DNA of 34,518 nt from positions 1 through 34,518 of IMG/VR virus record IMGVR_UViG_3300029653_000081; one strand, given 5' to 3'. The notes under the pieces are model-generated. The model was not told the origin of the DNA. It made no database searches and was given only the letters and a program-made list of their open reading frames with translations. This DNA is from a virus. Taxonomy: Duplodnaviria > Heunggongvirae > Uroviricota > Caudoviricetes. A program made the translations under genes and the position numbers. This document shows, piece after piece, positions 4,533-33,432 of this stretch (positions are counted from its first letter, which is position 1; each line of letters opens with the position of its first letter).

Positions 4533-4556
4533 AAAAAAGCTCCCGAAGGAGCTTTA
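4533..4556. terminator. Stem-loop between hok (+) and the minus-strand structural genes
   Basis: aaagctcc-cgaa-ggagcttt with A-run on one side; on the minus strand it is followed by TTTTTATTT, so it likely terminates the minus-strand operon. Confidence 0.6.
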
Positions 4557-4574
4557 AAATACAAGGGATGACTC

Positions 4575-5084: not shown

Positions 5085-5095
5085 ATAAAATCCTT

Positions 5096-5677: not shown

Positions 5678-5712
5678 TCAAGTTAAAGGCCGGAGTTCTC
5701 CGGCCTCCTCCT

Positions 5713-6528
5713 TTAGCCAAGGCGCTTACGGCGCAGTTTCATTGACTTTTTGCGGGCAAGTTTTGCCGCGCCGGTCTGGGCTTTTCGACGCGCTTTTTTC
5801 AGCGCCGATTTTTGAGCCGCAGTCAGACGTTTTTTACGCAGGCGTTTACGGATGAGTTTGATCTCACCGTTACGAACAACCTTCTTAAATGCTTCAGTCA
5901 GCATTTCATCAGAAGTGCCAGCAACAACAAACGCCGCTTCCAGTTCGTCGCGGTCGTCGCTATCTAAACCAGCGATAGAGGCACCAACATCAGCAGCTGC
6001 GTCGTCGTCTTCATCGTCAGCCAGTGCTTCGATCAGGTCATCATCTACACCGCATGCTGCGAGGAAGTCAGCAACATTTGCCCATGCTTCGTTATAGGCA
6101 TCGTCCTGTTCTTCTGTAACTTCGGAGTCGTCGTCATCAGAGATACCAGCGATAGCCTGAACGAAACCATCAAGGGAGTCGAAAGTCAGATCACCGCTAT
6201 CAGCCCAGGCGAAAACGGCGTCGGCCGCATCACTCAACGCATTTTGCATAGCACTTCGATTTGCAGCTTCCAGAATCATCTGGTGCGCCTGTTCGACGGT
6301 CCATTCTTTACCGTCTTTCCCTTCCAGGATTTGCTCAGGAGCCTGGGCAGATGGAACGTTATCGTTAGTCTGTGCCGCCGGTTCCGGATTATTATTAATA
6401 ACCGGATCTGTTGGCGGTTCAGCGCTTGCTCGGGCAGACTCCATCAGCTGCACAGGATCAGAGTTCAAAGCGAAACGAGACAGTCCATTCCCCAAAAATG
6501 CCCCGGATTGAAAAAAGTTTTTGCTCAT
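5713..6528 (-). CDS. Highly acidic protein with a polybasic C-terminal tail (271 aa), function unknown
   Basis: D/E-rich middle region (DDDDSEVTEEQDD, ADDEDDDAAAD) followed by KLIRKRLRKKRL...RKKSMKLRRKRLG. Confidence 0.4.
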   Translation of the reverse strand: MSKNFFQSGAFLGNGLSRFALNSDPVQLMESARASAEPPTDPVINNNPEPAAQTNDNVPSAQAPEQILEGKDGKEWTVEQAHQMILEAANRSAMQNALSDAADAVFAWADSGDLTFDSLDGFVQAIAGISDDDDSEVTEEQDDAYNEAWANVADFLAACGVDDDLIEALADDEDDDAAADVGASIAGLDSDDRDELEAAFVVAGTSDEMLTEAFKKVVRNGEIKLIRKRLRKKRLTAAQKSALKKARRKAQTGAAKLARKKSMKLRRKRLG

Positions 6529-6537
6529 TGTATTCCC

Positions 6538-8127: not shown

Positions 8128-8187
8128 AACTTTCCCTGTTATGCGCCCCGCACGGGGGCGCTATGTTAAACGGAGAACTTCCCCTGA

Positions 8188-9915
8188 TTACTCAGAGTCA
8201 CCGGCATCAATCGTGTCGCCGCTAATGAAGTTAAGCCCGCCTTTTTTGGCCATTGTCAGCGTTACACGAGTGAAGTAATCAGCGCCGTTGCGTGGGTGCA
8301 TATCGTTGATAGCCGAACCCCACAGCGTGGTACGGTTGACCAGCGCCGGAGTGGTCGGATGCTGGAACGGGATGGCCGGGACAGCATCACCAGTCACGAA
8401 GCCTGCTTTACCCGGATTTTCATCACGGACGTAGCACAGCACATCCATCGAGCTGAACTGAATGTTCTCTGTCGTTAAGTTCTTACAAATACCAGCAGGT
8501 ACTTCGTACACTTTCACGTTACCGAACAGGGTACCGATGTAGTGAACATACGGAGTCTGGATATAGTCTTCGGCTGGCTGGAAGAAATCCTTCGGCAACT
8601 GTTTGAAGAAAGATGCTGCATCAGCACCAGCAAACATCCCCATCGCACCAGAAGATTTAACGCGCTCAATAATGTCGCGATATACAGTCTGGAATTTGCC
8701 ACGAATGATGGTTGCCCATACATCAAAGGACTGGTTAACCGGCAGAGCGATGTCAAAGGTGTCGGTCGCAAGAGTACGCCAGATCATGATGCGAAGACGC
8801 AGCATATCCTGTTCATGAGACAGGTATTCCTTCAGGGTGCGGAACTGTAGGGAACCCAGGTCCAGACCAAATTCACGCTGTGCTTCATACGCCGCCTGTA
8901 CCGTGTGCTCAGCCGCGATAACGAACTGGCTTGGGAACAGGGTGTATTTCTTCATTTCGTGGTTGATCAGCGGGATCAGCTCAGGAGCGGCTTCAATATT
9001 GATTTCCGTCTCAATTGCGATCTCAGTGCCTTTATCCGGCGCTTTGGAGAACGACAGTGCAATCTGACCAATGTTGTAGTTCAGAGAGCAGGTAACAGTG
9101 ATTTGCTCACCAGCAGCATTAGTAAACGAGTGAAGTAGGCTGCCGGAACCGTTATCAACAACAGACTTAATACGGTTAACGTAGATATTAGTGCGACCTT
9201 TTCGGATTGGTACATTCTGGCCTTCGAAGTCTTCCATCTTGAAGGTTGCGGTTTTGCTGGTGCCATCGGAGCTTGCCACCAGCACATAGCGGCGGCGTAA
9301 CTGGCTGTACACACCGACGGATTGCATGTCCAGAACATCACCAGCAGCATAAGAACCAAAAGAGGAACCTGCCACGTTAAAGACTTCATAGATGTCGGAC
9401 TGGTCACGCGTAACCGGAATGAAGGTACACGCATCAGCGGTAGCTGCCCCCAACTGAACAGGCAGGATCATCGCGAGGAATAAAGGCAGACGCATAACAC
9501 CGTCAGAAACGCTCATCATCTCTGCTGCGACGGATTCCAGCATCGCTTTATTAGTGGCATCCATGCTATTGCGGGTGGACTCAATCAGGCAGTTTTCCAG
9601 CGTCTGGTGGCAGGAGGCCAGAATTTCCGGACGCGGCATAGATTTATGTGCTGCGGCGTAGTCAGCCAGTGCACTTGCCCACGCTGTAGCGATTTGAGCG
9701 GTGGCATTATCAGAGATACCCGCAAAAACCGGGTCTTTACGTGCAGCTTCAAGGATAGATGCGGCACGCGCGGCATCATCTTTAATGAATTGGTTATCAG
9801 TACCGAACTGCGCAGTGCTTGCCCAGCCAAGCACAGCTTTAGAGCGTTTTGCGATATCTGCAATACGATTCTGGTATTCGCGTAAGTTACTCAATTTACT
9901 CTTCCTTAAACACAA
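8188..9915 (-). CDS. Putative major head protein (575 aa as tracked; real start probably a few codons in)
   Basis: Large ORF adjacent to parS, as recalled for P1 gene 23. The tracked start is TTG; AAGGAAGAG precedes a second TTG five codons downstream. Confidence 0.4.
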   Translation of the reverse strand: MCLRKSKLSNLREYQNRIADIAKRSKAVLGWASTAQFGTDNQFIKDDAARAASILEAARKDPVFAGISDNATAQIATAWASALADYAAAHKSMPRPEILASCHQTLENCLIESTRNSMDATNKAMLESVAAEMMSVSDGVMRLPLFLAMILPVQLGAATADACTFIPVTRDQSDIYEVFNVAGSSFGSYAAGDVLDMQSVGVYSQLRRRYVLVASSDGTSKTATFKMEDFEGQNVPIRKGRTNIYVNRIKSVVDNGSGSLLHSFTNAAGEQITVTCSLNYNIGQIALSFSKAPDKGTEIAIETEINIEAAPELIPLINHEMKKYTLFPSQFVIAAEHTVQAAYEAQREFGLDLGSLQFRTLKEYLSHEQDMLRLRIMIWRTLATDTFDIALPVNQSFDVWATIIRGKFQTVYRDIIERVKSSGAMGMFAGADAASFFKQLPKDFFQPAEDYIQTPYVHYIGTLFGNVKVYEVPAGICKNLTTENIQFSSMDVLCYVRDENPGKAGFVTGDAVPAIPFQHPTTPALVNRTTLWGSAINDMHPRNGADYFTRVTLTMAKKGGLNFISGDTIDAGDSE

Positions 9916-9939
9916 GGCACTTGTGTGAATCCCTTTTCG

Positions 9940-10070
9940 GAAGAGATTTTATTGAAAGTCACTTGTTGACTTTCTCGCTAAAAGTAATTTTTTAAATTTT
10001 TTGTGCGGGGGAGGGGGGCAAGTAAAACAGGCGTGAAATCGTGGGAATTTCAGTCTGAAATTTTCCATGA
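9940..10070. promoter_or_regulatory. parS: parS-like partition site downstream of parB
   Basis: Heptamers related to ParB box A (gtgaaat 10033-10039, atttcag 10047-10053, ctgaaat 10055-10061) next to an AT-rich tract (10070-10100) that could be an IHF site. Confidence 0.5.
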
Positions 10071-10160
10071 ATATCTATATATATCATATATTTATACATG
10101 AAATAGGCGCGGGACATTTTAGACAGGGGAGGGGGCTAAAGCCGCCTCCCACCAGCGGGA

Positions 10161-11126
10161 TTATTCCCCAGCAGACATTTTCCCAATGATTTTTTTTATT
10201 GCTTCGTCAATTTCAGTTTGCACTTCAGACGGGAGTCTGGAGAACTCGTAGGCGACAACCCGTTTTTTCGGATCGGACTTCTTTCGGGCATATTGGCGAC
10301 GGTCAGAGAAGTCTCGCAGCTTCTCAACCACCACAGATTTAACCGGCGCGGGCTTCAGGCTTTTGCTTTCCGCTTTGAAGATAGCCAGTATCTTCGCTTT
10401 ATCCTCTTTCGCGCCCTCAGTCTCTGCAATTCGTTCGCGCACCGTATCAACCAGCTCTTCAATCGGCACGCTTTTAGCGTTAGCATCCTCGGCGATCTGG
10501 AGCAGTAACTGGTAATCTGGAAGGGCGAGATCGCTGGCTACGGGGAAGACAGCAATCATCTCATCCGGCACCGCGGCAGCCTGGAAAGCTCGCGTCACTT
10601 TTGCCTTTGAGATGTTCTCAGCTCGGGCGATCTCTTCTTTGGTCATATTCTTACCGTACATAACCTCGAAGCGTTTACCCAGCTCGCGCAGAGTGTGTTC
10701 GCGGGCTGTCTGGATATCAATGGCCAGCTGGCGGGCATCCGCCAGGCTGATCTCATCTTTCGTCACCAGAATCTCAAATTTCGTTTCATTGAAGATACAC
10801 GCAGCGCGGCGACGCGATCCGTCCAATACCTCAATGCGCTCCCCAACCATACGACCGATAGCCGGGAAGAACTGTTGCAATTTAATGGTGCGGGAAATAT
10901 CGCTTACCGACTCAGGGGTGAGCAGAGACTGATCGCGGCCGTTAACTGCCGGGTCAACGAACGTGCGCGACTCAATCTCACCACTCAGCACGACGGTAAG
11001 CAAGAATTTAGCCTGGCGGCCAGATTTTAGGGTAAAGGTTTTGGTGCCTTCACTGCCTTCAAGCATGCGAGCAAACTCGGAGCTATTCTTGCCCAGCACT
11101 CGTCCACGGGAAACTATTTTTTTCAT
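10161..11126 (-). CDS. parB: Partition protein ParB
   Basis: 321 aa with ParB-like segments (GRDQSLLTPESV, LDGSRRRAA, SKAKVTRAFQAAA); overlaps the parA stop. Confidence 0.9.
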   Translation of the reverse strand: MKKIVSRGRVLGKNSSEFARMLEGSEGTKTFTLKSGRQAKFLLTVVLSGEIESRTFVDPAVNGRDQSLLTPESVSDISRTIKLQQFFPAIGRMVGERIEVLDGSRRRAACIFNETKFEILVTKDEISLADARQLAIDIQTAREHTLRELGKRFEVMYGKNMTKEEIARAENISKAKVTRAFQAAAVPDEMIAVFPVASDLALPDYQLLLQIAEDANAKSVPIEELVDTVRERIAETEGAKEDKAKILAIFKAESKSLKPAPVKSVVVEKLRDFSDRRQYARKKSDPKKRVVAYEFSRLPSEVQTEIDEAIKKIIGKMSAGE

Positions 11127-12334
11127 GCCGCCTCACCCCTAACAAACTCAATTCGATCAAACACAGCCTTAGTGAAACGCTCGGCCTCGGTTCGTGCCTT
11201 CTTCAGCGCCTCTGCACTGCCTGGATACGATTGCGGGTTGGCACTGATTACGGTGTCGAAAGACTCGCCGCATCGCTCAAAGCCATCCAGACGAGGCAGA
11301 GAAGAGTCCAGAATGTTGCTGGCGTAAACCTCACGCGCAAGGCTGTGTGATGTCTCGTGATCGCGCTTGCCGGTCATCTTCGACATAAAACCAATGCTGG
11401 CGCTCAAACGCGGTTCTACGCCTTCCTCCTCCAGTTGCTCCAGCATTTCTGGCAGACGGGTGAGATATTTCAGTGTTGAGTGGAAGTCAACCTGGGCTGG
11501 TGGGGTAGGGGTAAGCAGCAAATCGCTGGCCGCCAGACCGTTGAGCAGGAACGGATCCAGGTGTGGACCGGTATCAATAAAGATAAAGTCATAATCATCC
11601 GCAACACGATCAATGATATTGCGTCGAAGGATTTCGTACTGATTTTGTCCGGGAAGATGCTCTTCAACCAGCTCTTTCCATTGGCTGGCAACAAAGCCAT
11701 CGTCGATAGAGGCTGGAATCACGTCTACGCCAGGAACGATGGTCGGACGAATCACCTCTTTGCGTAGCGTCTCCGCGTCCAGGTCGTTCAGCATCGCCTG
11801 CGCGGCGGTTTCCAGGATGGAACCAATACTGTGAGTATGGTCGAGGAACATTGTGCTGGATGCCTGAGGGTCAAGGTCAATTACCAGAATGCGCAGATCG
11901 TGACGCAGTAAATCCTGATGCACACGCAGAGCGTGCGCCAACGTGACTGTGGAAACCGTTTTGGATACGCCACCCTTCAGGTTTACGACAAAAATAACGT
12001 AAGGCGATTTGTGAATGTCGCGATATTTGGGGATCTTACGGTGGGCATAGATATCAATGACGTTCTGGATGGTCAGCGCGTACTGTTCAACGTTACCGAC
12101 CTGTTTCTTGTTGAACTGGTACCCATCATCTTCCATCTCTTTGATGGCCTGCTCCACAATACGGCGGCTCAGCTTCGGCAACTTTGCCACAGCGTTACGA
12201 GTGAACGTCTGATAATACTCGGTCTGATTGAACTCTTTGCGCTGATCTTCAATATCCTGACTCATGGCCTTAAGTAATGCGCTTGCACGAAGAGCTATGG
12301 TGCCGACACCGCCGTAATCGCGTTTCATCATCAT
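11123..12334 (-). CDS. parA: Partition ATPase ParA (type Ia)
   Basis: 403 aa; deviant Walker A NLKGGVSKTVST, plus VIDLDPQ and FIDTGPHLD motifs; long N-terminal extension typical of P1-type ParA. Confidence 0.9.
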   Translation of the reverse strand: MMMKRDYGGVGTIALRASALLKAMSQDIEDQRKEFNQTEYYQTFTRNAVAKLPKLSRRIVEQAIKEMEDDGYQFNKKQVGNVEQYALTIQNVIDIYAHRKIPKYRDIHKSPYVIFVVNLKGGVSKTVSTVTLAHALRVHQDLLRHDLRILVIDLDPQASSTMFLDHTHSIGSILETAAQAMLNDLDAETLRKEVIRPTIVPGVDVIPASIDDGFVASQWKELVEEHLPGQNQYEILRRNIIDRVADDYDFIFIDTGPHLDPFLLNGLAASDLLLTPTPPAQVDFHSTLKYLTRLPEMLEQLEEEGVEPRLSASIGFMSKMTGKRDHETSHSLAREVYASNILDSSLPRLDGFERCGESFDTVISANPQSYPGSAEALKKARTEAERFTKAVFDRIEFVRGEAA

Positions 12335-12430
12335 CTCCTTATCATTTCGTATGAGTGAATTGTACGTTTGATTCTGCTACGTGCAACTTTTTTTGATTCG
12401 TGCGTCAATTATTGCACGTAAAGAAATGGC

Positions 12431-12730
12431 GATGTGGCTATTAGATGTGTGCTGGAGGGATGATGCAGGACCAGAATGTGCGATAGAGGGAAGTCGCATT
12501 AAATTATGTGCTGTGGAGGGATCGCTGGTATCAAATATGTGTGCTGGAGGGAAAGGCAGAGAATTACATGTGCACTGGAGGGAAAAACGGATGGACAGAT
12601 GTGTGCTGGAGGGAAAGTCTGGGCAAACTGCGGGGCGTCCCCCTCCAGCGCACATCAAAAACAGGAAATTAGACAAGCCTTCCCGGCAGCACACATATTT
12701 TTAATGCAGCTTCCCTCCAGCACACACTTA
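12431..12730. repeat. incA: incA iteron array (about nine 19-bp RepA-binding repeats, both orientations)
   Basis: Direct copies of (G)ATGTGTGCTGGAGGGAAA-like repeats near 12444, 12474, 12504, 12536, 12567, 12598 and inverted copies near 12639, 12678, 12710. Confidence 0.85.
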
Positions 12731-13588
12731 TTCTGGGAGTTTCAGCTTTGGATTGCGAGAATGGACGATTACAAAACTTTCCCGGCCTTTCTTCTCAATT
12801 GAACAGTCGAGATAGCCGATTGTTTTAAGCTGTTCTATCGCTTTCTTAATGATACGGTTTTGCTCGCCAACAGCTGACTGCAAAGCCAGGCGCTCACGGA
12901 TTCGGGCGAAAGATAGCGGCAACGGATTCTGCGGAAGGCTTTCGATGAAAGTGTAAATGGCTTGTGCAGCTTCTTTCTTCGGAAGGGCACGCAAGGCGTG
13001 GTGTTGCAACAGAACGCGATAATCAAGCTGGAACAGCTCCCACAGCTTCGAATCAGCCTCCAGCTCTATCAGATCAAGGTCAGCATCAAAACGACCGACC
13101 TTTAGCAGACCAGTCTGATAGCCGCCTTTAGCATCTTTTCCGCGCTTAAAAGCGATACCCTTGTTACGTAAGCGTCCAAGTGATTCATGAATGGTTAAAC
13201 GCAGTTTCGCATCCAGACGTTTTGAGGGGAAACCACAGGCTTTAGCGAATTCCTGAAACGATAACTGGATGGTGTTTGAGGACAAGCCGTATTTGCTGAA
13301 CGCGTAGATGACACCGATCCACGTTTTGAAATCAGTATCCATATCGAGTCGAGGACCGGTGATTTTAATATCATCGTAACCCTCGGCTTTAGCTATCTCC
13401 AGCTGGGAAAACGCTTTGGTGGCATCAATCTCTTTACTTTCTCCTTTGCTCTTTGATGGCTTCGGAACGAATACCCCCAAGCGCATCAATGCTACAGGCT
13501 GGACAGTGTTGTTTGAATTAACTGTTAGTTCTTTTGCCTTACTTTCAATGTCTGCGTAAAGAATATCGGAGATAAATGATTGATTCAT
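12728..13588 (-). CDS. repA: Plasmid replication initiator RepA (286 aa)
   Basis: Flanked by iteron arrays on both sides and followed by parA-parB, the P1 plasmid replicon arrangement. Confidence 0.9.
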   Translation of the reverse strand: MNQSFISDILYADIESKAKELTVNSNNTVQPVALMRLGVFVPKPSKSKGESKEIDATKAFSQLEIAKAEGYDDIKITGPRLDMDTDFKTWIGVIYAFSKYGLSSNTIQLSFQEFAKACGFPSKRLDAKLRLTIHESLGRLRNKGIAFKRGKDAKGGYQTGLLKVGRFDADLDLIELEADSKLWELFQLDYRVLLQHHALRALPKKEAAQAIYTFIESLPQNPLPLSFARIRERLALQSAVGEQNRIIKKAIEQLKTIGYLDCSIEKKGRESFVIVHSRNPKLKLPE

Positions 13589-13599
13589 ATTACTTTTTC

Positions 13600-13870
13600 C
13601 GAATTGTGTGGATAGTTTTTATAAGTGGTGATAACTACCCAGGCTTTCCCGTCAGCACACATCCTATATCCCGCCAGCACACATTAGCAACCCGTCAGCA
13701 CACATTTTTATCCCTCCAGCACACATCGTTTTCCCTCCAGCACACATCGCGATACACTTCTAAGCCAGACGTGGCGCGGCCTGCAACGATCAGGGATCTA
13801 TATGGATCTAATTGGGATCTGTATGGACCTAATTATTGGATCTACCCAGTGGATAATGTGGATAAGTGAA
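13600..13870. other. oriR: Plasmid origin (oriR-like) including incC iterons
   Basis: Five inverted iterons (13645-13748, ...cagcacacat...); five heptamer repeats (G/T)GGATCT at 13793-13843, four with GATC; DnaA-box-like sequences tgtggatag (13607-13615) and agtggataa/tgtggataa (13848-13866). Confidence 0.85.
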
Positions 13871-13905
13871 AAACCGGCCAACATAGCCGGTTGGAAGGAA
13901 GGGTA

Positions 13906-14298
13906 TTATTCTACGCTTTCGATAAGAAGACCATGTTCATAGCATTTAAGCTCATCGCCTTCATACAGGAACTGGTATCCAATACCACCATATTCAGGCA
14001 CATTAGGGAATAACTCATCACTTACCGAAGAACAAATCACACCAATGCAGCGATCAACGCCTTCTCGTTCTTCAGTGCTGAAAAAATCCTCTTCGGTAAG
14101 AACATGAGTGCATTGCTCATCAGCATAGGTCGGAAATACATGCTCGATGCAATCCGGGTGTTTTAAACCAAGCTGATCGGCAAGCTCGAAAGCATGACGG
14201 TATTGTTCAGATCCTGGCTTGCCAACAGTGATTTGCTCAATTTTGTAGATTGAAGTCGCTTTGTTGATAGTTTGCTTTACTGTTACTTTATCAGACAT
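13906..14298 (-). CDS. Hypothetical protein (130 aa)
   Basis: ORF with coding-like composition next to the origin; no motif recognised. Confidence 0.35.
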   Translation of the reverse strand: MSDKVTVKQTINKATSIYKIEQITVGKPGSEQYRHAFELADQLGLKHPDCIEHVFPTYADEQCTHVLTEEDFFSTEEREGVDRCIGVICSSVSDELFPNVPEYGGIGYQFLYEGDELKCYEHGLLIESVE

Positions 14299-14309
14299 AA
14301 AAATCCCTT

Positions 14310-14642
14310 TTAGTTACCACTGATAGCGTGGTTGTAATCATTAACGTTGCGATTCTTCCTGTTAATCCCCATCAGCATCGTTTCTGTATCAAGGATATAG
14401 GCTGGCAGATCATCAAAATATTCACTGCTAAACTCTGGCATCCTGCACATAAACGCACTTTTGGGGGCAGGGTGATTAACCTTTGTCGGCGTCGGCGTTA
14501 AATTCGCTGATCGACTCCCGGAGCAACCGCTGAGTGTCAACAGGAATGCGCTGGCGAACACTACCCGACGCAACCAGTTGTTTCTGAACTTCAGCTTTTC
14601 GTTCCATTTGCCTGTCAGCATATTTGGCTTGTTCTGATTCAT
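14310..14642 (-). CDS. Outer-membrane lipoprotein, possible o-spanin (Rz1-like)
   Basis: Basic n-region KLKFRNNWLRR, hydrophobic VVFASAFLLTL, lipobox LSGC, then proline-rich PTPTKVNHPAPK. Its 5' part is embedded out of frame in the upstream gene. Confidence 0.5.
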   Translation of the reverse strand: MNQNKPNMLTGKWNEKLKFRNNWLRRVVFASAFLLTLSGCSGSRSANLTPTPTKVNHPAPKSAFMCRMPEFSSEYFDDLPAYILDTETMLMGINRKNRNVNDYNHAISGN

Positions 14643-14898
14643 TTTTCACTTCCTGGCTGTGAAAATGTTGCTCTGCTTTGTTCATCGTCTCAATGGTCTG
14701 GTTAAGATCCATTATTGACTTATCACGTTCCTTAACAGCCTGATCAAGACTGCCAATTTTCTCCATGGCTTGCTTTAGCTGATGACGTTCCCATGCAAAC
14801 CCAGCACCAACAAGTGCGCAAATCAGAACAAGAACACCAGTAGCAGCAAGTTTCTCCTTCAAAGACAAAGCTGTTTTTAACGTAGAAAAGAATGACAT
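14476..14898 (-). CDS. N-terminally anchored coiled-coil protein, possible i-spanin (Rz-like)
   Basis: ATG at 14898 preceded by AGGAGG; single TM segment TGVLVLICALVGAGFAW then a charged helical region. Overlaps the lipoprotein gene as in Rz/Rz1 pairs. Confidence 0.5.
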   Translation of the reverse strand: MSFFSTLKTALSLKEKLAATGVLVLICALVGAGFAWERHQLKQAMEKIGSLDQAVKERDKSIMDLNQTIETMNKAEQHFHSQEVKNESEQAKYADRQMERKAEVQKQLVASGSVRQRIPVDTQRLLRESISEFNADADKG

Positions 14899-14937
14899 GT
14901 CTTCCTCCTGAAGAAAAATTATCAATGAAGTCCTTTG

Positions 14938-15726
14938 TTACTGTGCCGCTTTGTTTAATTCATCAAGAACAGAATCAGGAACCAAAGCGGCAACTGCGCT
15001 GGCTGTGCTGGCCTTATTTGCTGATGCTTCCGCAAGCGCGGTACCGATAGCATGGTTATAAGCAGTTATGGCTACGTTGGCGCTTTCATTCGCTCGTTCA
15101 TACTGCTGTTGTAACGCAGTTGTGGGCGCTGTTGTCTGGTTGAAAACAACCCCAAACTGTTCAGTTGCTACTTTCAGAGATTCAATTTGCTCTTCTGTTA
15201 GTGCTGGTGGGGGAGTGGCAGTGCCGCCGCCTGAACCAGAGCCTGACGAGCTTCCTGAGCCAGTGTTAAGGGTCTGGTTAATCTCCCCCATAGCAGCAAC
15301 TAAACTTGATGTATTAAGCGCGTTTACAGCGTCCTCAAGCGATTTAGTAATAGTCACATCACCAATGGCAATAGAGATCGGCAGTTCTGAAACTTCTCGC
15401 TCATTAGCACGGCAGTAAACATCCCAACCAATATCGAGTTGAAGCAGCATTGACAGATCTGCATAACCAGCCAACAGGTCCGCGTGCTTAGTTGCCAGTT
15501 CGACAATGTTCGTTAAGCCTGTTGTGGTTGTTCTGATCGTTGAAACATAACTGGTAATAGTGTCGGGATAGACAATTGTATCCAAAATTAATCCGATCAA
15601 TTCTTCTGCAAGCTGTTTTGCCGTGTTAGCACTGTTTCGTGCCGATGTTATGGCACCAAGTGTTTTCATCCCACCGGCTGCGGCCAATTTTTTATATGCG
15701 GATAACTGGTAGTCTTTTTCCAGCAT
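14938..15726 (-). CDS. Two-domain protein joined by a Gly/Ser-rich linker (about 262 aa), function unknown
   Basis: ATG at 15726 with AGGAG SD (tracked ORF extends to 15783); linker GSGSSSGSGSGGGTATPPP. Confidence 0.4.
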   Translation of the reverse strand: MLEKDYQLSAYKKLAAAGGMKTLGAITSARNSANTAKQLAEELIGLILDTIVYPDTITSYVSTIRTTTTGLTNIVELATKHADLLAGYADLSMLLQLDIGWDVYCRANEREVSELPISIAIGDVTITKSLEDAVNALNTSSLVAAMGEINQTLNTGSGSSSGSGSGGGTATPPPALTEEQIESLKVATEQFGVVFNQTTAPTTALQQQYERANESANVAITAYNHAIGTALAEASANKASTASAVAALVPDSVLDELNKAAQ

Positions 15727-15734
15727 GATATCTC

Positions 15735-16019
15735 CTAACTTACCTGAACTAGGCCGTCTCCGGACGCTACGGTAGATCCGCATGAAACAGGGTCACCAAC
15801 GCATACGATCCCTTTACCATTGACGGTAAACCATGCCCTGGTTGATATAGCTTGCCCACCGTGCGTACTGTTTCCATCGGTATGCTGTGCATATTGCTTA
15901 CCATCAACTAACACTTCGACTCCGTTGACTTTAAGTAGTGGTTCACTCTCTACAGGAGGCCTGGATGGGAATCCTCCGTGCCCCGAACAAATGCTGTCTT
16001 TTGTTGCAATACTTGCCAC
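15735..16019 (-). CDS. PAAR-like small protein (94 aa), possible tail spike tip
   Basis: GTG start; CSGHGG, THGG and VNGKGIVCVGDPVSCGS motifs resemble PAAR repeats. Confidence 0.45.
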   Translation of the reverse strand: MASIATKDSICSGHGGFPSRPPVESEPLLKVNGVEVLVDGKQYAQHTDGNSTHGGQAISTRAWFTVNGKGIVCVGDPVSCGSTVASGDGLVQVS

Positions 16020-16100
16020 GTCGTCACCAATGATTTGCTCTGATTTTCGTTATTTTAACTTAGGTTATTTGTGGTCTGTATGGCGTTTACTTATTACAAA

Positions 16101-16117
16101 ATTGCTCTAATAAATAT
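16101..16117 (+). promoter_or_regulatory. C1 repressor operator upstream of the uhr-rdgC-dmt operon
   Basis: ATTGCTCTAATAAATAT (16 of 17); TTGCTC -35-like with TTATAT/TATATC about 16-17 nt downstream. Confidence 0.8.
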
Positions 16118-16188
16118 TGTTTTTTATATCGTGTTTTCGGTACCATTCAGCCATCGCCCTTCAATGGGCATTTGTTTGGAGTCGTCAG

Positions 16189-16473
16189 ATGCAGATGGAG
16201 CTAATAAGCCGCAAGGAGTTCGATAGCCGTGTAACCAGCGGTGAACTCGACAACTTGCAGGCTATCAAGGTGAAAGAAGGCTTTTGCCTCATTGGGAATC
16301 AGAGCGGAACAAATCGCGTTTTTATGCTTCGCCGTACGGATTTGAAGCCATTTGTCTGGAAGAACGAAATTGGTCCCAGCTCATACGCTCAAACGAGGGG
16401 GTGCCACAACTTGGCCTTTTTCTACAAAGACGAGCTTTCTGTGGTTGATATTCAAGGGTTACAACATGTTTAA
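16189..16473 (+). CDS. Small protein upstream of rdgC (uhr-like, 94 aa)
   Basis: ATG at 16189 with GGAG 8 nt upstream; overlaps the rdgC start by 8 nt. Confidence 0.45.
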
Positions 16474-17371
16474 GCACTGGAAAAATATTACTATTTATAA
16501 ACTTTCTCGTGAGGCGGATCTGACCGACTTAGAAGATAAAAAGAAAATGATCCTTTTCACGCCATGCGGTAGTCAGGATATGGCCAAGTTCGGTTTTGTA
16601 TCGCCATTTGGTGATAATTCCGAAGTTATCGCTATGCATGGAAATGGTTTTATCCTTGTTGAAGCAAAGCGCGAAACAAAAATTCTTCCCCCGCCGGTTA
16701 TCCAGCGAGCTATTCAAGAAAAAATTGAAAAACTTGAGCAAGAACAAGCGCGTAAACTGAAGAAAACAGAGAAGGACTCCCTGAAAGACGAAGTTCTGCA
16801 TTCTCTTCTGCCACGGGCTTTTTCAAAGTTTTCTGTTATCCAGGCGATCTACGACGGTTCAACTAAACGTATCTATATCAATGCCAGCGCGCGGCAGGCA
16901 GAGGATATGCTCGCGCTTATGCGTAAGTCTCTGGGTTCTCTTCCTGTTGTGCCACTAAGTGTTGAAAATCCCATTGAGTTAACGCTGACCGACTGGGTAC
17001 GTGATGCTAGTGCTCCACAGGGATTTCAAATGGGGGATGCGGCAGAACTTAAGGCAGTGCTTGAGGATGGCGGTATCGCCCGAGTGAAAAAGCAGGATTT
17101 GGGAAGCGATGAAATTTCCACACACCTGGAAGCTGGCAAGCTCGTCACTAAGTTGGCACTCGACTGGCAGAACCGCATTAAATTTACACTGGACCATAAC
17201 TTCAGCATTACCAGCGTCAATTTTGCGGATGAATTGCTTGAGCAGAACTCTGATATTGATAGTGAAGATGTTGCGCAGCGACTGGACGCAGATTTCTTCC
17301 TATTGACCAGTGAAATTTCGTGCCTGGTTGATGCTCTGGTAAATGCCCTTGGTGGAGAGGCTAAGCAGTGA
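16466..17371 (+). CDS. rdgC: RdgC-family recombination-associated protein (P1 hrdC-like)
   Basis: 301 aa from [15 protein letters not shown]; [38 protein letters not shown] and GSLPVVPLS closely resemble E. coli RdgC as recalled. Confidence 0.8.
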
Positions 17372-20250
17372 AAGAGCTGTGCTATGGATCTGTTTGCAGT
17401 GGAATTGAAGCCGCGAGTATTGCCTGGGAACCGTTGGGTATGCGTCCGGTTTGGTTTGCTGAAATCGAGCCTTTTCCATCGGCCGTTCTTGCGCTCCGCT
17501 GGCCCCATGTCGCCAACCTTGGCGACATGACAAAACTTGCCAAAAAAGTCTTGGCTGGGGAAATCGAATCCCCTGACGTGCTCGTCGGGGGAACACCATG
17601 TTTTACCGCGGGGCATATGGTTCTTTGTAAAAATGGTTATAAACCAATAGAAGATGTTTGCCCTGGCGATTACGTAGTCAGTCATCTCGGGCGGTTACAA
17701 CAAGTAAAAAGAGTTGGTTCAAAAATAGCTAATACGGGGTTACTTAATGCCGTTGGGCAGCCTTTAGGTATAAGAACAACCAATGACCATCCCTTCCTGG
17801 CTGTTCGGTGGAAAGCCCAAAACACCCGGAAAAATGGCACATATTTTAAGAGAGAGTTGTTGTCTGAACCGGAATGGCGAGCAGCATGTGATATGCCGGG
17901 ATATCAATGGTGCGCTCTAACTAATTTCAATATTGCATCTCCAGATATTTGTTCTCGGTTCTTGTCTGAAGAACAGGCTATGTATCTTGCGGGCGCTTAT
18001 GTTGGCGATGGATATATTAGGAGATGGAGAGGTAAATCTAAGAAGGCGGTTGTTTTTGGCATAAATTGCCAGAAATTGAGAAAGTTTCATTGCCGCATAC
18101 CAGAAAACATATTTTCCGTGGCAAGCGAAATCCGAGGGAGCATCAAAGTAACCTTGAATGATACGTGTTATGCCAATTGGCTTAATGAACATTTTGGCGA
18201 GTTAAGCCATGCTAAGCGTATCCCTGCATGGGTGATGTCGCATCCATTGCGTCATGTGTTTTTACAAGGCTATCTTGATACTGATGGGACACCAAGTGGT
18301 AAAGCGGGATTTAGAATTAATAGTGTTAGTCCTGCGCTTGCTTGGGGCGTTGCGGGGTTGTCACAGACTTGTGGTTATGTTTCTTCGGTCAGCTTTATTG
18401 AAGTTGAGCCCAAAAAAGTGATCGAGGATCGCGTGGTAAATCAACGGAATTATTATCAGGTAACAATCTGCCCGCAGAAATTGTCACGTAAATCAAGATT
18501 GGCTCATGGAATGCTTTTACGAACAGTCAAAGAGTTTAAATCGGTAGGCCTAGATACTGTATACAACATAGAAGTCGAAGGTGATCATTCCTATATCCTC
18601 AATGGTGCGGTGGTCCATAACTGTCAGGCATTCAGTATCGCGGGATTACGTGGTGGGCTTGATGATGAGCGTGGCGCGCTAACTTTAAAGTATGTGGAGC
18701 TTGCAAATGCAATTGACGACAAACGGGCTGAGTCATTTCTCAAACCAGCCGTTATTGTCTGGGAAAATGTCCCAGGAGTCTTGTCATCGGCAGATAACGC
18801 CTTCGGATGTTTCCTTGCCGGATTGGCTGGAGAAGATGCGCCATTTGAACCAGGTGATCGACCTGAATCAGGAAAAAGTAACGCGTTCTGGCGGTGGGAT
18901 GGCAAAACCGGTTGCCATGCTCCAAAGTGGCCGCAGTGTGGTTGTATTTATGGGCCGCAGCGAAAGGTGGCCTGGAGAATCCTTGATGCCCAATACTTCG
19001 GAGTGGCACAACGACGCCGACGCGTGTTTGTTGTCGCAAGTGCTCGAACAGACCTCGATCCCGCAACGGTACTTTTTGAGTTCGAAGGCGTGCGCCGGGA
19101 TATTGCGCCGAGCAGAGGCGAGGGGAAGGAAACTACCAGATATACTTCAAACATCGCTATCAGATCTTGCGATGATACAAACATAGTTGCCATGGCACAT
19201 GGGCAAGGAGGGGCTGAGATAAAAACCGATAATTCGGCACCAACTTTAACATGTAACCATGAAGCACCAATTGTATTGCTCGGCGACGGTAGAATACGCC
19301 GTCTTACCCCTGTCGAATGTGAAAGGCTGCAAGGTTTTCCTGATGGGCATACGTTGATCCCTACGGAAAAGCGTAAAAAAGTTTCTTCAGATGAACTGGC
19401 ATACCTTCGCAATAACTATCCTGATTTAAGCGAAGAAGAGGCCGCGATGCTTGCAGCTGACGGACCGCGTTACAAAGCGATCGGCAATAGTATGGCAATA
19501 CCAGTAATGCGCTGGATTGGCGATCGGATTACTAAGGCCGTATGTCGGCAGAAAGAAGGAAGTGAAACAAAAGAGCGAAAAGTTAAACCAGCGGCAGAAT
19601 TCGAACGGTCCATATTCAAATGGGCTGGTGGAAAATTTGGTGTTCTGGAACAAATCTTTCGCTATTTGCCAGAAGGGAAGCGCCTGATTGAACCTTTCGT
19701 TGGTGGCGGAGCTGTCTTCATGAATGCCGGATACCAGGAAAATCTGCTAAATGATGTGAATGCTGACCTGATTAACTTTTACAAGACTCTGCAACGCGAG
19801 GCGCATTCACTTATCACTCTGGCACATCGTTTCTTCCAGGACTACAACACACAGGAAGGATACCTGGCAGTACGGAATGCGTTTAACAAACAAGTCTATG
19901 ATGATTTACATCGCGCAGCGGCGTTTTTGTTCCTGAACCGACATTGTTTTAACGGATTGACGCGTTACAACCAGGCCGGTGAGTTCAATGTCGGTTATCC
20001 GGACATGAGTCTCGATAAAGCATGCGGTATTTATCACGGCATGCGAATTGAGCTTAAAGAACCAAATGGTAAAGCCCCGACGAAAGAGCAGATCGCCTGG
20101 ATGCGCAGGCTTAGAGAGGAAGGTTACTACGTCGTTCTTGCGTATGGTGCAGAACAAGCGATAACCGCCATCCTGGAATACATAAGCCTTAAAAAGGGTG
20201 AGGCTATTGAGCATGTATTGAACGGCGACAAGTGGTTGTATGCCACTTAA
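17368..20250 (+). CDS. dmt: Dmt-like multidomain DNA methyltransferase: C5-cytosine MTase interrupted by an intein, then a Dam-like domain and a nuclease-like tail
   Basis: GTG start coupled to the rdgC stop. C5-MTase motifs: [13 protein letters not shown] (split), [33 protein letters not shown]. Dam-like segment FKWAGGK...[10 protein letters not shown]...[23 protein letters not shown]. No DPPY-type motif anywhere in the protein. Confidence 0.85.
17599..18621 (+). other. Intein (341 aa) with LAGLIDADG homing-endonuclease motifs inside dmt
   Basis: Begins Cys (CFTAGHMVL), ends VVHN, followed by Cys+1; contains [11 protein letters not shown] and [10 protein letters not shown]. Excision would join GGTP to CQAFSIAG, restoring motif IV. 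Confidence 0.8.
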
Positions 20251-20316
20251 AATAATAAATTAATTAGTGCACATGTGCTCTTTGATATAGCGCACATTAA
20301 CATCGGGAGAATAATC

Positions 20317-20472
20317 GTGTCATTCAAGGTTAATTATGAATCGCTGGCATCGATCATGCCGCGTAATGAACAGGAAGCAGATGCTGTAGTGGACCCGGTA
20401 ATCGCTGAAATGAATGCTCGCCTGGAGGCTGAATTTGCAGCTGAGAATGAACATACCACCCAGGGCGACTAG
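20317..20472 (+). CDS. Small acidic hypothetical protein (about 51 aa)
   Basis: GTG preceded by GGGAGA; tracked ORF starts earlier at 20275. Weak evidence. Confidence 0.25.
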   Translation: MSFKVNYESLASIMPRNEQEADAVVDPVIAEMNARLEAEFAAENEHTTQGD

Positions 20473-21076
20473 GACTGTTTTTTGTGTCGGTAGCGGTCCG
20501 TCACTCACTCGTGAGGACTGTGCTGCTATAGAAAAAACTGGCTGTTCAATCATTGCGGTTAACAATTCCTGGCTGATGTTCGATGACATTTATGCCTTAT
20601 ACGCCGGTGATTTGTCATGGTGGAAGCAATACGGTTCCACCATACCGGGAGGGAGGTTCCGCAAAGTGACAGCCAACCTGGCGGCGGCGAAATCATTTTC
20701 GTTGGAGTACAGGCGATATTGTGGACCGGCGGAAGGGGTAAATAGCGGCGCGCAGGCTATCAGTCTGGCTGCTGAATCAGGGGCTGAAGTAGTGGTATTA
20801 GTCGGCTATGACTGTTCTCTGCAAAACGGCCTTCATTGGCATGGCGCGCACCCTCAAGCCCTACGGAATCCAACGCAGGTGTCTATTTCAAAATGGCAAC
20901 AGCAGTTCCTGGATACCCGCAAAAAACACGCAGATTTACATATTTTGAATGCAAGTAGGAGCAGTGCAATTCAATGTTTCCCAAGAATAAATTTAGAGGC
21001 AGTGATCGCGTTATTATCGTCGGCAGTGGCCCAAGCGCCGCAAACTTTGTTGCGCCGCGCGGAGTGCCGATTATAG
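20444..21076 (+). CDS. Rossmann-motif protein, paralog 1 (possibly DUF115/MptE-like transferase)
   Basis: N-terminal VFCVGSGPS, IIAVNNS, and NSGAQAISLAAESGAEVVVLVGYD; paralogous to the next gene. Family assignment is from memory. Confidence 0.5.
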   Translation, partial: RMNIPPRATRTVFCVGSGPSLTREDCAAIEKTGCSIIAVNNSWLMFDDIYALYAGDLSWWKQYGSTIPGGRFRKVTANLAAAKSFSLEYRRYCGPAEGVNSGAQAISLAAESGAEVVVLVGYDCSLQNGLHWHGAHPQALRNPTQVSISKWQQQFLDTRKKHADLHILNASRSSAIQCFPRINLEAVIALLSSAVAQAPQTLLRRAECRL

Positions 21077-21600
21077 CGGTCAATGGGGCTATCGACTGGC
21101 TTAACCGCGCTTCTTATTTTTTCACCCTTGATCCATCCCCAGACAATATGCGGCGCGTTGGTCGTGGCCGCCGTCGCCGTGGTGTTTGTTATTGCATGGC
21201 ACTACCCGATGTTAAAGAACGTGAAGTCAGAGATGGCGTTCTGTGCTTCCGTCGTGTGGCTGAACGCGGCACAGAGCCAAAAAATACGAATTCTCCCGAG
21301 TGGTGGGCGTGGCGCTGGTCCGCACATTTCGGCCTTTGCGAAGATGAGAATGAAATTGCCAGCGGCAATAGTGCATATGGTGCTCTGAACCTGGCTTTCC
21401 ATATCGGATTCAAACATGTAGCCCTGGTGGGCGTTGACGCTACGCAAGAACTACGCGTTCACTCCGGCGGCACGCCAAAAAATCTAAGTCACCTGCCTTT
21501 GTTATTCCAGTCTGCGCGTGAACAGATTGACGTTGTTTCATGCGGGAAAATGGGAGGTATTCCGCAGATGACTCTTAAAGAATGGCTGAAGAATACATGA
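20974..21600 (+). CDS. Rossmann-motif protein, paralog 2
   Basis: [40 protein letters not shown]; its start overlaps the 3' end of paralog 1. Confidence 0.5.
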
Positions 21601-22274
21601 TGGCACCCACAATTTATCACCGTATCGACGGTACCAAATACAGGAATGTCTGGGTTGTTGGTGATCTGCATGGTTGCTACACCAGACTGATGTCCGAACT
21701 CCATCGTGTGGATTTTGACCCGGCGCAGGATTTACTGATATCGGTCGGCGACCTTATCGATCGCGGTACTGAAAATGTCGAATCTCTGGAACTATTGCAG
21801 ATGCCCTGGTTCAGGGCAGTAGTGGGGAACCATGAGCTGTTGATGCTCGATGCGTTAAGTCCTGATGGCAACGTGAATAACTGGCTAATGAATGGCGGTC
21901 AATGGTTCTTCATGCTGGACGCTGATCAGGAAATATTAGCCAGGGCGCTGGTGGAGTTGGTAAGACGACTGCCCTATATCATTGAGTTGAACACCGGGCA
22001 AGAAACTATCGTTATAGCCCATGCCGACTATCCGGATAATGAATATCAATTCGGTAAGGAGGTGCCGCTTTTCAACGTTGTCTGGGCGCGCGAGCGTATC
22101 AGTGATTCGATGGATGATATTGGTGGCGAAATTTCGGGCGCAGATCGTTTTATCTTTGGTCACACTCCGGTGAAAAGCCCGAAGACATTCTGGAATCAGC
22201 ATTATATCGACACAGGTGCCGTATTTTGCGGAAACCTGACATTGAAGAAAGTGAAAGGTGATGGTGCAGCATGA
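21582..22274 (+). CDS. Lambda-type Ser/Thr protein phosphatase (metallophosphatase)
   Basis: GDLHG, GDLIDRG and GNHE motifs; start may be ATG at 21597 or 21600. Confidence 0.85.
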
Positions 22275-22971
22275 AGATTGCTTTAGTTCTTCGCTCTGGT
22301 GGTGACTATAACGCTTCCGATGTGCAGTGGCTGGTTAATCAACTGCCAAAAGACTATGAAATTATTTGCCTGACAGACCTGAAGTGTTTACATGTACCTG
22401 GCGTCAAAGTTATCCCATTGATCAACCAGTGGCAAAAGTGCCGTGGCTGGTGGGCGAAAATCGAGTTGTTCCGACCGGATATAACCGATGATCTGTTCTA
22501 TCTGGATTTGGACACGGTTATTGCCGGTGATATACGCCCAATCCTAGAGAATCCACCAACCAACTTCACCATGCTTAGGGATTTTTACCATCCACAATAT
22601 CGTGGCAGCGGGGCCTGTGGATACCAAATAGTGTAAAAGCGCATATCTGGAGTGCATTCTGGCAAGATCCGGAAGGTTGGATTGCTCGTTGTGTTACTAC
22701 TGAATGCTGGGGTGATCAGGGGTTTTTGCGGAAGGTTATGGGTGATGATACACCAGCATTTCAGGATCTGTATCCGGGATGGTTTGTAAGTTACAAGGCC
22801 GATGTTGTGGAACCTGGTTCGAAATATGCGAGCGCGCGTTACTCCAGGGGGAATGGGGCATTACCAAAAGACTGCCGAATAATCTTTTTCCACGGCAAAC
22901 CGCGACCTCGCGAAGTGTCAGAGGATTGGATTCCCCTTACCAGCTCGTTTTTTGAGCAAGTATCAGAATAA
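22271..22971 (+). pseudogene. Glycosyltransferase-like gene (DxD motif) split by a one-base frame change
   Basis: Frame 2 (22271-22636) contains YLDLDTVIAGDI; frame 1 is open from 22579 and continues to 22971 (..ECWGDQGFL..). The frames overlap around a G4 run at 22610-22613. Confidence 0.5.
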
Positions 22972-22972
22972 T

Positions 22973-22989
22973 ATTGCTCTAATAATTCC
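22973..22989 (+). promoter_or_regulatory. C1 repressor operator, left member of an inverted pair
   Basis: ATTGCTCTAATAATTCC; the 5' 13 nt match the consensus. Confidence 0.7.
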
Positions 22990-22997
22990 ATATTTTT

Positions 22998-23027
22998 AAA
23001 ACGTGATGTACACTCATCACGTTTTTT
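22998..23027 (+). terminator. Rho-independent terminator between the operator pair
   Basis: aaaacgtgatg-tacact-catcacgtttt (11-bp stem) followed by tt. Confidence 0.7.
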
Positions 23028-23038
23028 ATTAGAGCAAT
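23022..23038 (-). promoter_or_regulatory. C1 repressor operator, right member of the inverted pair
   Basis: Minus-strand ATTGCTCTAATAAAAAA; arrangement resembles bidirectional paired operators described for P1. Confidence 0.7.
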
Positions 23039-24607: not shown

Positions 24608-25114
24608 TTGAGTATTTTCAATAAACACGCACACCAGGAACGTCCGTACATCGTCATAGTAGATATTGATGGGACGATATCAGAGGCAACGGAAGACAGG
24701 CTGCATTTACTTCCACCACCTGGCAAAGGTGCATTAACAGAGCACTGGAACGAGTTTAACCTTGCCTGTGACACTGATGCTCCCATCACTCCAGTTATTG
24801 ATATGGTGCGCCAGTTATTTAACGTTTACACGGTCTGGTTTGTAACCGGGCGCTGTGAGATCGCAAGGGATAAAACACGAGCCTGGCTGCGGAAGTACGT
24901 AACAAACGGGGCTGAGCCTTTGCTATCTATGCGTCCTGCCACCGATGACAGAAATGACGGTCCAGCAAAGATTGATCTCCTGAAGAAAATTGGTCTAAGT
25001 AAAATTGCGTTCGCGCTGGAAGATAAGATTGAAGTGGCGCGTGTGTTCAGGAGTCATGGCGTACTTACATTAATGGTCAGGGAGTATGAAAATGCGCTTC
25101 TTCATCAACAATAA
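24608..25114 (+). CDS. HAD-superfamily phosphatase-like protein (168 aa)
   Basis: TTG start 6 nt after AGGAGG; motif I IVIVDIDGT and motif II-like WFVTGR. Confidence 0.55.
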   Translation: MSIFNKHAHQERPYIVIVDIDGTISEATEDRLHLLPPPGKGALTEHWNEFNLACDTDAPITPVIDMVRQLFNVYTVWFVTGRCEIARDKTRAWLRKYVTNGAEPLLSMRPATDDRNDGPAKIDLLKKIGLSKIAFALEDKIEVARVFRSHGVLTLMVREYENALLHQQ

Positions 25115-25130
25115 TTGTTCTAATAAATCT
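25114..25130 (+). promoter_or_regulatory. C1 repressor operator abutting the HAD gene stop
   Basis: ATTGTTCTAATAAATCT (15 of 17); TTGTTC -35-like with TAAAAC about 17 nt downstream. Confidence 0.65.
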
Positions 25131-33415: not shown

Positions 33416-33432
33416 ATTGCTCTAATGTATTG
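33416..33432 (+). promoter_or_regulatory. C1 repressor operator upstream of lpa
   Basis: ATTGCTCTAATGTATTG, immediately after the pdcB stop. Confidence 0.7.

Follow-up and report, generated by a model that had tools for sequence, protein, structure and literature searches.

Mycobacteriophages reportedly carry phage-encoded, non-essential glycosyltransferase genes, for which a role in the glycosylation of capsid and tail proteins has been proposed or shown; to our knowledge, no counterpart has been demonstrated in phages that infect Gram-negative bacteria. Maf flagellin glycosyltransferases, the closest structural relatives of two of the proteins described below, move 3-deoxy-D-manno-oct-2-ulosonic acid (Kdo) from endogenous cytidine monophosphate (CMP)-Kdo onto Ser/Thr residues in Escherichia coli (bioRxiv 10.1101/2020.06.03.131540). 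The DNA analyzed here, referred to as the window, is a stretch of 34,518 nucleotides (nt) from a virus of the Caudoviricetes (IMG/VR record IMGVR_UViG_3300029653_000081). At positions 20275-22971 it holds the operon known from phages P1 and P7 as pmgN-pmgO-pmgP-ppp-pmgQ (hdmA-hdmB-hdmC-ppp-hdmD in P7). New in this work are the recognition of pmgO, pmgP and pmgQ as a conserved, fusion-linked three-enzyme cassette, which may glycosylate proteins, and its recurrent capsid and adhesin contexts. The cassette shares with the mycobacteriophage system the phage-borne and non-essential nature of its glycosyltransferase genes, whereas the latter involves other enzyme families, actinobacterial hosts and no DUF115 pair.

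The block aligned over essentially its full length with 19 P1-like phage records (P1, P7 and 17 more) at 97-98% identity, and the P1 and P7 annotations agreed with it gene for gene. All five genes are encoded on the + strand, namely, pmgN (20317-20472), coding for a small acidic protein; pmgO (20414-21076), coding for a minimal Maf/DUF115/MptE-like Rossmann protein and putative subunit of a CMP-ulosonic-acid transferase; its distant paralog pmgP (20974-21600), whose product has the same fold; ppp (21582-22274), coding for a lambda-type Mn-dependent Ser/Thr protein phosphatase; and pmgQ (22271-22971), the gene of a GT8-like, putatively retaining GT-A glycosyltransferase. Successive genes overlap by 59, 103, 19 and 4 nt, which, judging from the sequence, is the anatomy of a translationally coupled operon, and no transmembrane or hydrophobic segments were found in any of the cassette proteins. 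An earlier sequence-only reading of this DNA had noticed the co-oriented, overlapping genes, and both the open reading frames (ORFs) and the P1/P7 alignment confirm them; it counted four genes, all of which are present, and missed pmgN. It also presented the block as uncharacterized. This novelty does not hold, given that the genes have carried names since the annotation of the P1 genome and that RefSeq lists their predicted products as alpha-2,3-sialyltransferase, metallophosphoesterase and glycosyltransferase. The comparison with P1 and P7, proposed in the same reading as a way of telling a conserved block from cargo, revealed a conserved operon, of which this particular copy has a broken pmgQ and an upstream deletion.

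To assess the wider distribution of the cassette, diverged relatives were retrieved from viral, genome and metagenome collections and clustered by PmgP at 90% identity; clusters were kept if at least 3 kb of sequence was available on either side, which left 47. This diversity set is based on a second alignment made without P1 sequences; the first locus scan consisted of near-identical P1 copies and was used to count intact genes. PmgQ was encoded within 3 kb of PmgP in 45 of the 47 diverged clusters, and PmgO within 5 kb in 41 of them. Furthermore, natural fusions were observed between PmgO and PmgP (P0044), between PmgP and PmgQ (P0293 and P0368) and, in the inverse order, between PmgQ and PmgP (P0344 and P0377). 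In P1 as well as in several diverged loci, the reading frames of pmgO and pmgP share 50-100 nt. Comparative data on synteny, fusions and gene overlap thus argue strongly for a joint action of the three proteins. A search of 1.84 billion representatives at E ≤ 1e-3 yielded 530 clusters (50% identity) of this family. All named hosts of the homologs were Gram-negative, and they ranged from Enterobacteriaceae to Bacteroidota and Gemmatimonadota.

A pairwise BLAST comparison of PmgO and PmgP gave a weak and nearly uninformative match (E = 0.003), and the comparison of their profiles resulted in a probability of 98.1% (E = 8.9e-14) over 163 columns. The Pfam family MptE-like (PF01973) was matched at E ≤ 0.1 by 28 of 28 PmgO homologs and 30 of 31 PmgP homologs, and the natural fusion P0044 exceeded the gathering threshold of this family (44.6 bits; threshold, 34.6). 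The AlphaFold models were confident, with a predicted local distance difference test score of 84.6 for PmgO and 93.0 for PmgP. For both models, the best structural match was the Maf flagellin glycosyltransferase 5mu5 (scores of 14.8 and 13.5, respectively); the archaeal pyrophosphokinase MptE (11.5 and 12.7) and the GT42 sialyltransferase Cst-I (11.2 and 10.7) were also matched, and thiamin pyrophosphokinases and GT29 sialyltransferases ranked lower. The two proteins thus have the Rossmann-like fold that is common to Maf, MptE and GT42 enzymes. Viral proteins matched in BFVD were all uncharacterized phage proteins or phage proteins named MptE-like. Taken together, profile and model comparisons identify PmgO and PmgP as distant paralogs with a DUF115/MptE-like fold. 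This assignment had been anticipated in the sequence-only reading on the basis of VGSGPS, IIAVN and LVGYD/LVGVD motifs, which are indeed present and conserved across the homologs.

The SGPS motif, N50, D66, N110-S111 and G131-x-D133 (PmgO numbering) are invariant in both paralog families. They resemble features of the Maf enzymes, whose Rossmann core likewise contains GxGPS, an acidic residue that is conserved, and a Ser located ~22 residues ahead of G-x-D. The spacing between Ser and Asp is 22 in PmgO and PmgP, as compared to 23 for the functionally required residues S334 and D357 of Clostridium botulinum Maf. Judged from conservation and sequence spacing, D66, S111 and D133 are candidate counterparts of the catalytic acidic residues (E324 and D415 in 5mu5) and the conserved Ser of Maf. 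Maf enzymes also resemble PmgO and PmgP in being soluble and cytoplasmic and in their possible use of CMP-Kdo in E. coli. However, they are ~600 amino acids (aa) long and contain extra N- and C-terminal domains, whereas PmgO and PmgP are bare cores of ~200 aa that are paired or fused, share 16-17% identity with Maf and lack the context of flagellin glycosylation or nonulosonic acid biosynthesis genes.

The second group of related enzymes are the GT42 sialyltransferases Cst-I and Cst-II of Campylobacter jejuni. In searches of the Protein Data Bank (PDB) with single-family profiles, PmgO matched Cst-II only weakly (E = 0.3) and PmgP had no match. A merged PmgO/PmgP profile retrieved Cst-II first (E = 0.0036), followed by Maf and Cst-I, and the GxGPSL and SG...G-x-D motifs are collinear. 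The label alpha-2,3-sialyltransferase that PmgO bears in RefSeq and PHROG is based on this GT42 likeness. In contrast, the acceptor of the Cst enzymes is lipooligosaccharide, and E. coli K-12 makes no CMP-sialic acid. We propose that PmgO and PmgP are minimal relatives of the Maf-/sialyltransferase-type catalytic domain that probably form a heteromeric pair, and that their donor would be a CMP-activated ulosonic acid, for which CMP-Kdo is the best candidate in enterobacteria.

The shared fold, as well as the fact that the matched Pfam family is named for MptE, would also permit PmgO and PmgP to be pyrophosphokinases of the MptE or thiamin pyrophosphokinase type, which activate a small molecule or a sugar so that PmgQ uses or modifies the product. 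We judge this improbable. The best structural match of both proteins is a Maf glycosyltransferase and their best sequence-profile matches in the PDB are CMP-sialic-acid transferases; moreover, their constant partners are glycosyltransferases, glycan-tailoring enzymes and sometimes the CMP-Kdo synthetase KdsB, and no pterin or thiamin pathway genes were detected among the families of the flanking ORFs.

PmgQ had no Pfam-A match at E ≤ 1, including none to the Glyco_transf_8 model. However, a profile of 39 PmgQ homologs matched GT8 structures in the PDB with E values from 3.7e-8 to 4.5e-5, namely, the Skp1 alpha-galactosyltransferase Gat1 (6mw5; 3.7e-8), glycogenin (~1e-5), and a streptococcal GT8 enzyme (5gvv; 4.5e-5). 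Residues D79-L80-D81 and P213 are invariant across these homologs, and H208, G209 and P211 are nearly so. The PmgQ family has thus conserved both the DxD motif (DLD in PmgQ) and the C-terminal H-x-G-x-P-R/K-P-W motif (FHGKPRP in PmgQ) of GT8 enzymes such as glycogenin, Gat1 and WaaJ/WaaO, and differs from them in its shorter length of ~200-235 aa. On these grounds PmgQ is a GT8-like DxD GT-A enzyme and putative retaining glycosyltransferase, which would add a further sugar, a hexose, by a retaining reaction. The sequence-only reading had likewise described the last gene as GT-A-like with a DxD motif, which is accurate for the family, but the copy in the window is frameshifted. Gat1, which acts on Skp1, and glycogenin, the nearest relatives of PmgQ in the PDB, both extend glycans that are linked to protein.

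Additional clues to donor, product and acceptor were obtained from the gene contexts of the diverged loci (designated by L numbers, with positions in each locus). In distant P1-like phage-plasmids, a gene for a KdsB equivalog (270 bits, the cutoff being 155; solved structures of KdsB matched at E = 1e-72) is located a few genes downstream of the cassette, following a pmgS-like gene (L004:10658-11425, L097:13219-14007, L101:13680-14435, L100:11154-11866, and L176:11219-12004). In L004 it adjoins a gene for a Pap-like HAD phosphatase, and the copy in L100 appears to be split. Related cassettes are interleaved with genes for a second small GT-A protein, a GT2-like protein, methyltransferases that are S-adenosylmethionine (SAM) dependent or of the FkbM type, and a carbohydrate sulfotransferase. 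Variable tailoring genes of this kind (Sulfotransfer_2, FkbM-type and class I SAM methyltransferases) were located at L232:8579-9193, L112:6640-7269, L111:8749-9372 and L166:8274-9881. Their variation hints at a glycan product that is diversified between phages.

In many phages, the cassette immediately follows the gene of the major head protein and precedes head-completion and connector genes. This is illustrated by the 137 ORFs that flank the cassette in 35 non-P1 loci, in which 82 Pfam families were matched. Of the 25 top families listed, Phage_capsid was the commonest (11 ORFs), and Phage_HCP (6 ORFs), HK97-gp10_like (6 ORFs) and Phage_connect_1 (5 ORFs) were also found. A second recurrent site was beside the lysis cassette. 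Between the capsid gene and pmgO, several loci contain a small ORF of 83-98 aa with a Ser/Pro/Thr/Ala-rich tail that mostly ends in a basic KRGRPRK-like motif (L111:5825-6112, L159:9280-9564, L208:7001-7252, L172:5061-5357, L175:893-1171, L182:421-705, and L211:5291-5566). These ORFs matched only PHROGs of unknown function (7993 and 2616), and their products could be glycosylation substrates or head accessory proteins.

A different context was observed in chromosomes of Pseudescherichia, where the triad genes are interleaved with the gene of an inverse autotransporter (IAT_beta and Big_1 repeats) and those of four other Big_1/Invasin_D3 proteins (L230, corresponding to the L154 region, 2236-18532; also L155-L158). 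The flanking genes (MFS, LysR and MscS) are ordinary chromosomal genes and not those of a prophage. This layout is as expected of a dedicated adhesin-glycosylation system and suggests that such a system is present. In line with both contexts, the acceptor of the cassette would be a protein; for phages, the most likely candidates are head proteins of the virion, which are synthesized in the lytic phase. The sequence-only reading had envisaged DNA or virion proteins as the target; nothing was found in support of the former, and the capsid and adhesin contexts make the latter a live hypothesis.

Considering these data, our preferred interpretation is that PmgO, PmgP and PmgQ constitute a cytoplasmic protein glycosylation cassette that likely acts on virion head proteins, with CMP-Kdo as the likeliest donor. 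As far as it can be derived from sequence comparisons, we regard this interpretation as plausible, a little short of probable, and several observations weigh against it. Literature searches found no functional study of pmgO, pmgP, pmgQ or phage DUF115 proteins and no biochemistry for these families. Plaque formation by P1 did not require pmgO, pmgP, ppp or pmgQ, and these genes had no antirestriction effect, as determined by CRISPR interference (CRISPRi) and single-gene deletions (PMC10695390; PMC9024508). PmgC and PmgG are the only pmg proteins reported in the P1 virion proteome, in a study that did not cover virion glycosylation (PMC9024508). The PF01973 matches of PmgO (22.6 bits) and PmgP (20.9 bits) themselves are partial and below the gathering threshold. 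In a low-confidence profile alignment, there is no His at the position of the catalytic residue His188 of Cst-II, which constitutes a difference from this enzyme, and its GHSK segment aligns with a conserved N-C/A-S-R. The donor assignment depends on few independent events, since only a single sublineage related to P1 has KdsB (4 of the 47 clusters). Lastly, the P1 cassette is located outside any head-gene module, and late operons may simply tolerate insertions at this site, which would account for the adjacency to capsid genes.

Part of the same evidence is compatible with the remodeling of the lipopolysaccharide (LPS) core, in which PmgO and PmgP would add an extra Kdo, like WaaZ, and PmgQ a hexose, like the GT8 enzymes WaaJ and WaaO, to the lipid A-core on the cytoplasmic side of the inner membrane. 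Since the LPS core is what P1 adsorbs to, such remodeling would alter the phage receptor during lytic growth, resulting in superinfection exclusion or in progeny being spared adsorption to debris. The presence of kdsB in related P1-like phages, the exclusively Gram-negative hosts and the similarity of PmgQ to the LPS core enzyme WaaJ (hhalign probability of 65%, E = 6e-5) argue for this scenario, as does a faint precomputed WaaZ_KDO_III match on the fusion P0044. However, this match was not reproduced on rescoring, when Pfam returned MptE-like only, and the hhalign comparison with E. coli WaaZ was not significant, with probabilities of 16.8% for PmgP and 13.2% for PmgO in alignments covering only the region from the central motif onward; kinship with WaaZ was not confirmed. 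Furthermore, the cores of hosts as distant as Enterobacteriaceae, Bacteroidota and Gemmatimonadota differ, the commonest neighbors are capsid and head-completion genes instead of envelope genes, the Pseudescherichia copy resides inside an adhesin cluster, and neither a membrane anchor nor a flippase or Gtr-type partner was seen among the protein segments and flanking-ORF families. We therefore consider LPS remodeling unlikely, and clearly less so than the pyrophosphokinase alternative.

In contrast to the three transferases, Ppp is not part of the conserved core. Its identity as a lambda-type protein phosphatase, already recognized in the sequence-only reading, is well supported by sequence comparison: it aligned over its full length (residues 11-229) with lambda phosphatase 1G5B (E = 9.6e-92), the motifs GDLHG, GDLIDRG and GNHE are intact, and it matched Pfam Metallophos with 56 bits (cutoff, 21.5). 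It thus keeps all metallophosphatase motifs of the lambda enzyme (NinI/orf221), the difference being that ppp is part of a C1-controlled glycosyltransferase operon, whereas the lambda gene is found in the nin region. Ppp was present in only 3 of the 47 diverged clusters, all of them close P1 relatives, and phage D6 has ppp without the transferases. Its membership in the core was consequently rejected, and from this distribution ppp is an insertion between pmgP and pmgQ in the P1 lineage that is unrelated to the module; its product would be an independent phosphatase. The functional module suggested in the sequence-only reading is hence retained for the transferases, which are conserved together, and not for Ppp.

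The window differs from other P1-like elements in its pmgQ gene. Alignment with P1 and P7 showed a 1-nt deletion after position 22611 together with an adjacent substitution (22611-22612, + strand), as a consequence of which the gene is divided into ORFs of 121 and 81 aa instead of 233 aa. Frame 1 ends at a stop codon at 22636, and the C-terminal H-G-x-P-R-P motif is out of frame. An intact pmgQ of 233 aa was present in 75 of 78 other P1-like copies, the cassette genes being intact in 75-78 of the 78, and the variant of the window was found in 0 of 82 P1-like loci. Since the conserved C-terminal half remains fully open in another frame, the lesion is a very recent mutation or a sequencing error. 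In the element analyzed, at most the PmgO/PmgP step could still work.

This lesion raises the question of whether the block is decaying cargo without present function in this element, an explanation that overlaps with the others and is not an alternative to them. Apart from the frameshift, which is seen in this window only, it is consistent with the loss of ~11 kb relative to P1, described as tail and replication genes, in the deletion that joins dmt to pmgM, and with the non-essential nature of the genes in P1. Nevertheless, pmgO, pmgP and ppp are still intact in the window, the shifted pmgQ frame is open and conserved downstream, and the genes are almost always intact across the 78 natural P1-like copies. 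We thus rate decay as rather unlikely, on a par with LPS remodeling.

Upstream of the operon, the window has an arrangement of its own. In P1, pmgM directly precedes the operon and dmt is found ~11 kb away. In the window, the ORF at 17368-20250 is an in-frame chimera composed of a C5-methyltransferase domain with an intein, a Dam domain that breaks off at profile position 134 of 253, and the VRR-NUC part from the C terminus of PmgM. The alignment with P1 located the deletion junction, at which truncated dmt is joined to the 3' part of pmgM, at 19993-19998 (+ strand), where there is a 6-nt microhomology (GGTTAT). Identity to the P1 record OP279344.1 is 100% to the left of the junction and 98.0% to its right (20277-22971). 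Among records matching the flanks of the dmt/pmgM junction, 0 of 567 from plasmids and 0 of 570 from E. coli genomes contained it contiguously. Since ~11 kb between dmt and pmgM are missing, the element is probably a defective phage-plasmid. The Dmt intein (17599-18621) has 341 aa with Hint and LAGLIDADG homing-endonuclease domains and interrupts the C5-methyltransferase domain at its catalytic P-C motif (GGTP|C...VVHN|CQAFS). OP279344.1 carries this intein at 100% identity, but P7 and several further P1-like phages lack it and gave two-piece matches.

That dmt adjoins the operon in the window is thus due to the ~11-kb deletion that fuses it to pmgM. The sequence-only reading had tied the upstream methyltransferase to the module, a link that synteny does not sustain, and the methyltransferase was discarded as a module member. 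The dmt neighborhood and the broken pmgQ are strain-specific lesions and not module biology. This bears on the idea that the transferases act together with the upstream methyltransferase to glycosylate phage DNA bases. Phage clusters in which a methyltransferase, a 5mYOX/TET enzyme and a glycosyltransferase glycosylate 5-hydroxymethylcytosine do exist (bioRxiv 10.1101/2023.12.21.572611), dmt with its C5-methyltransferase domain is upstream in the window, and a DNA methyltransferase gene also precedes the cassette in L088. However, a co-located 5-methylpyrimidine dioxygenase and a methyltransferase genuinely linked to the glycosyltransferases, as expected of such clusters, were not recognized here: the adjacency to dmt is a deletion artifact restricted to this window, and no dioxygenase or other enzyme generating hydroxymethylated bases was detected among the top 25 of the 82 flanking families in the 35 loci, which was the extent of the scan, the rest of the window being unscanned. 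The chromosomal copies, moreover, are found among adhesin genes. As far as we know, restriction enzymes cut P1 DNA in the ordinary way, and bulky bases are not known from it. DNA hypermodification is accordingly highly improbable, the least credible of the explanations considered.

The regulatory elements of the operon are kept in the window. The C1 repressor operator Oppp (Op83; 20257-20273, - strand), whose coordinates were carried over from the P1 annotation via alignment and whose sequence is near-identical in P1 and P7, is preceded closely by the predicted sigma-70 promoter PpmgN (about 20218-20244), with which it controls the operon. The P1 operon is C1 repressed, and the cassette would therefore be expressed after induction or infection. 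At the other end, an 11-bp hairpin with flanking A and T runs (22998-23025; free energy of -13.4 kcal/mol, z score of -5.2), terminator-like in both directions, marks the operon end. As noted in the sequence-only reading, it is flanked by C1 operators, which were identified from the P1 annotation and by operator matching: OpmgRa (Op86a; 22973-22989, + strand), which belongs to the next operon, pmgR-pmgS, and OpmgRb (Op86b; 23022-23038, - strand). In the whole window, 7 C1-operator matches were observed compared to 0.28 expected by chance. Additional matches, with one to three mismatches to ATTGCTCTAATAAATTT, are located at 537-553, 2207-2223, 16101-16117, and 33416-33432. A further C1 operator (25114-25130) directly follows pap (24608-25114); in P1 Pap, which is annotated as acid phosphatase, a HAD_PNKP phosphatase domain was recognized (E = 1.2e-11).

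The first gene of the operon, pmgN, starts at the GTG codon at 20317, which is preceded by the ribosome binding site GGGAGA. A longer frame from 20275 is open in the window and in P7; as it is closed by a stop codon in P1, the GTG was taken as the conserved start. PmgN matched PHROG 2350, of unknown function, and was found in P1-like loci only, suggestive of a small protein specific to the P1 lineage. NCBIfam contained no model for PmgN, PmgO, PmgP or PmgQ. In the literature, pmgN was essential by CRISPRi (efficiency of plating of 1.4e-2) and non-essential by deletion (PMC10695390; PMC9024508), a conflict that stands beside the non-essentiality of every downstream operon gene. This suggests that the CRISPRi effect was an off-target or regulatory effect of a guide near the promoter and operator and not a polar one.

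P1 is among the most used phages in genetics, and this operon is still labeled "putative morphogenetic function." The present analysis results in a concrete hypothesis, a portable three-enzyme glycosylation cassette that is recurrently located beside capsid genes. Should phages of Gram-negative hosts have glycosylated virions, this would be relevant to phage therapy, in terms of immunogenicity and clearance, as well as to phage-host recognition and glycoengineering, and minimal soluble Maf-like enzymes that may use CMP-Kdo, which is already present in E. coli, would be useful tools. If, instead, the LPS core is the target, the cassette would represent a new receptor-masking mechanism. In a broader proposal, which we consider doubtful yet somewhat likelier than LPS remodeling, PmgO, PmgP and PmgQ would be the first members of a protein O-glycosylation system that is phage borne and widespread in Gram-negative hosts. 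In this system, a heteromeric pair of minimal Maf-like enzymes places Kdo, taken from CMP-Kdo of host or phage origin, on virion head proteins and, in some bacteria, on Ig-like adhesins, and the GT8-like enzyme together with optional methyl- and sulfotransferases extends and tailors the glycan. If this is true, the P1 virion would be glycosylated and Kdo would be a natural protein-linked sugar.

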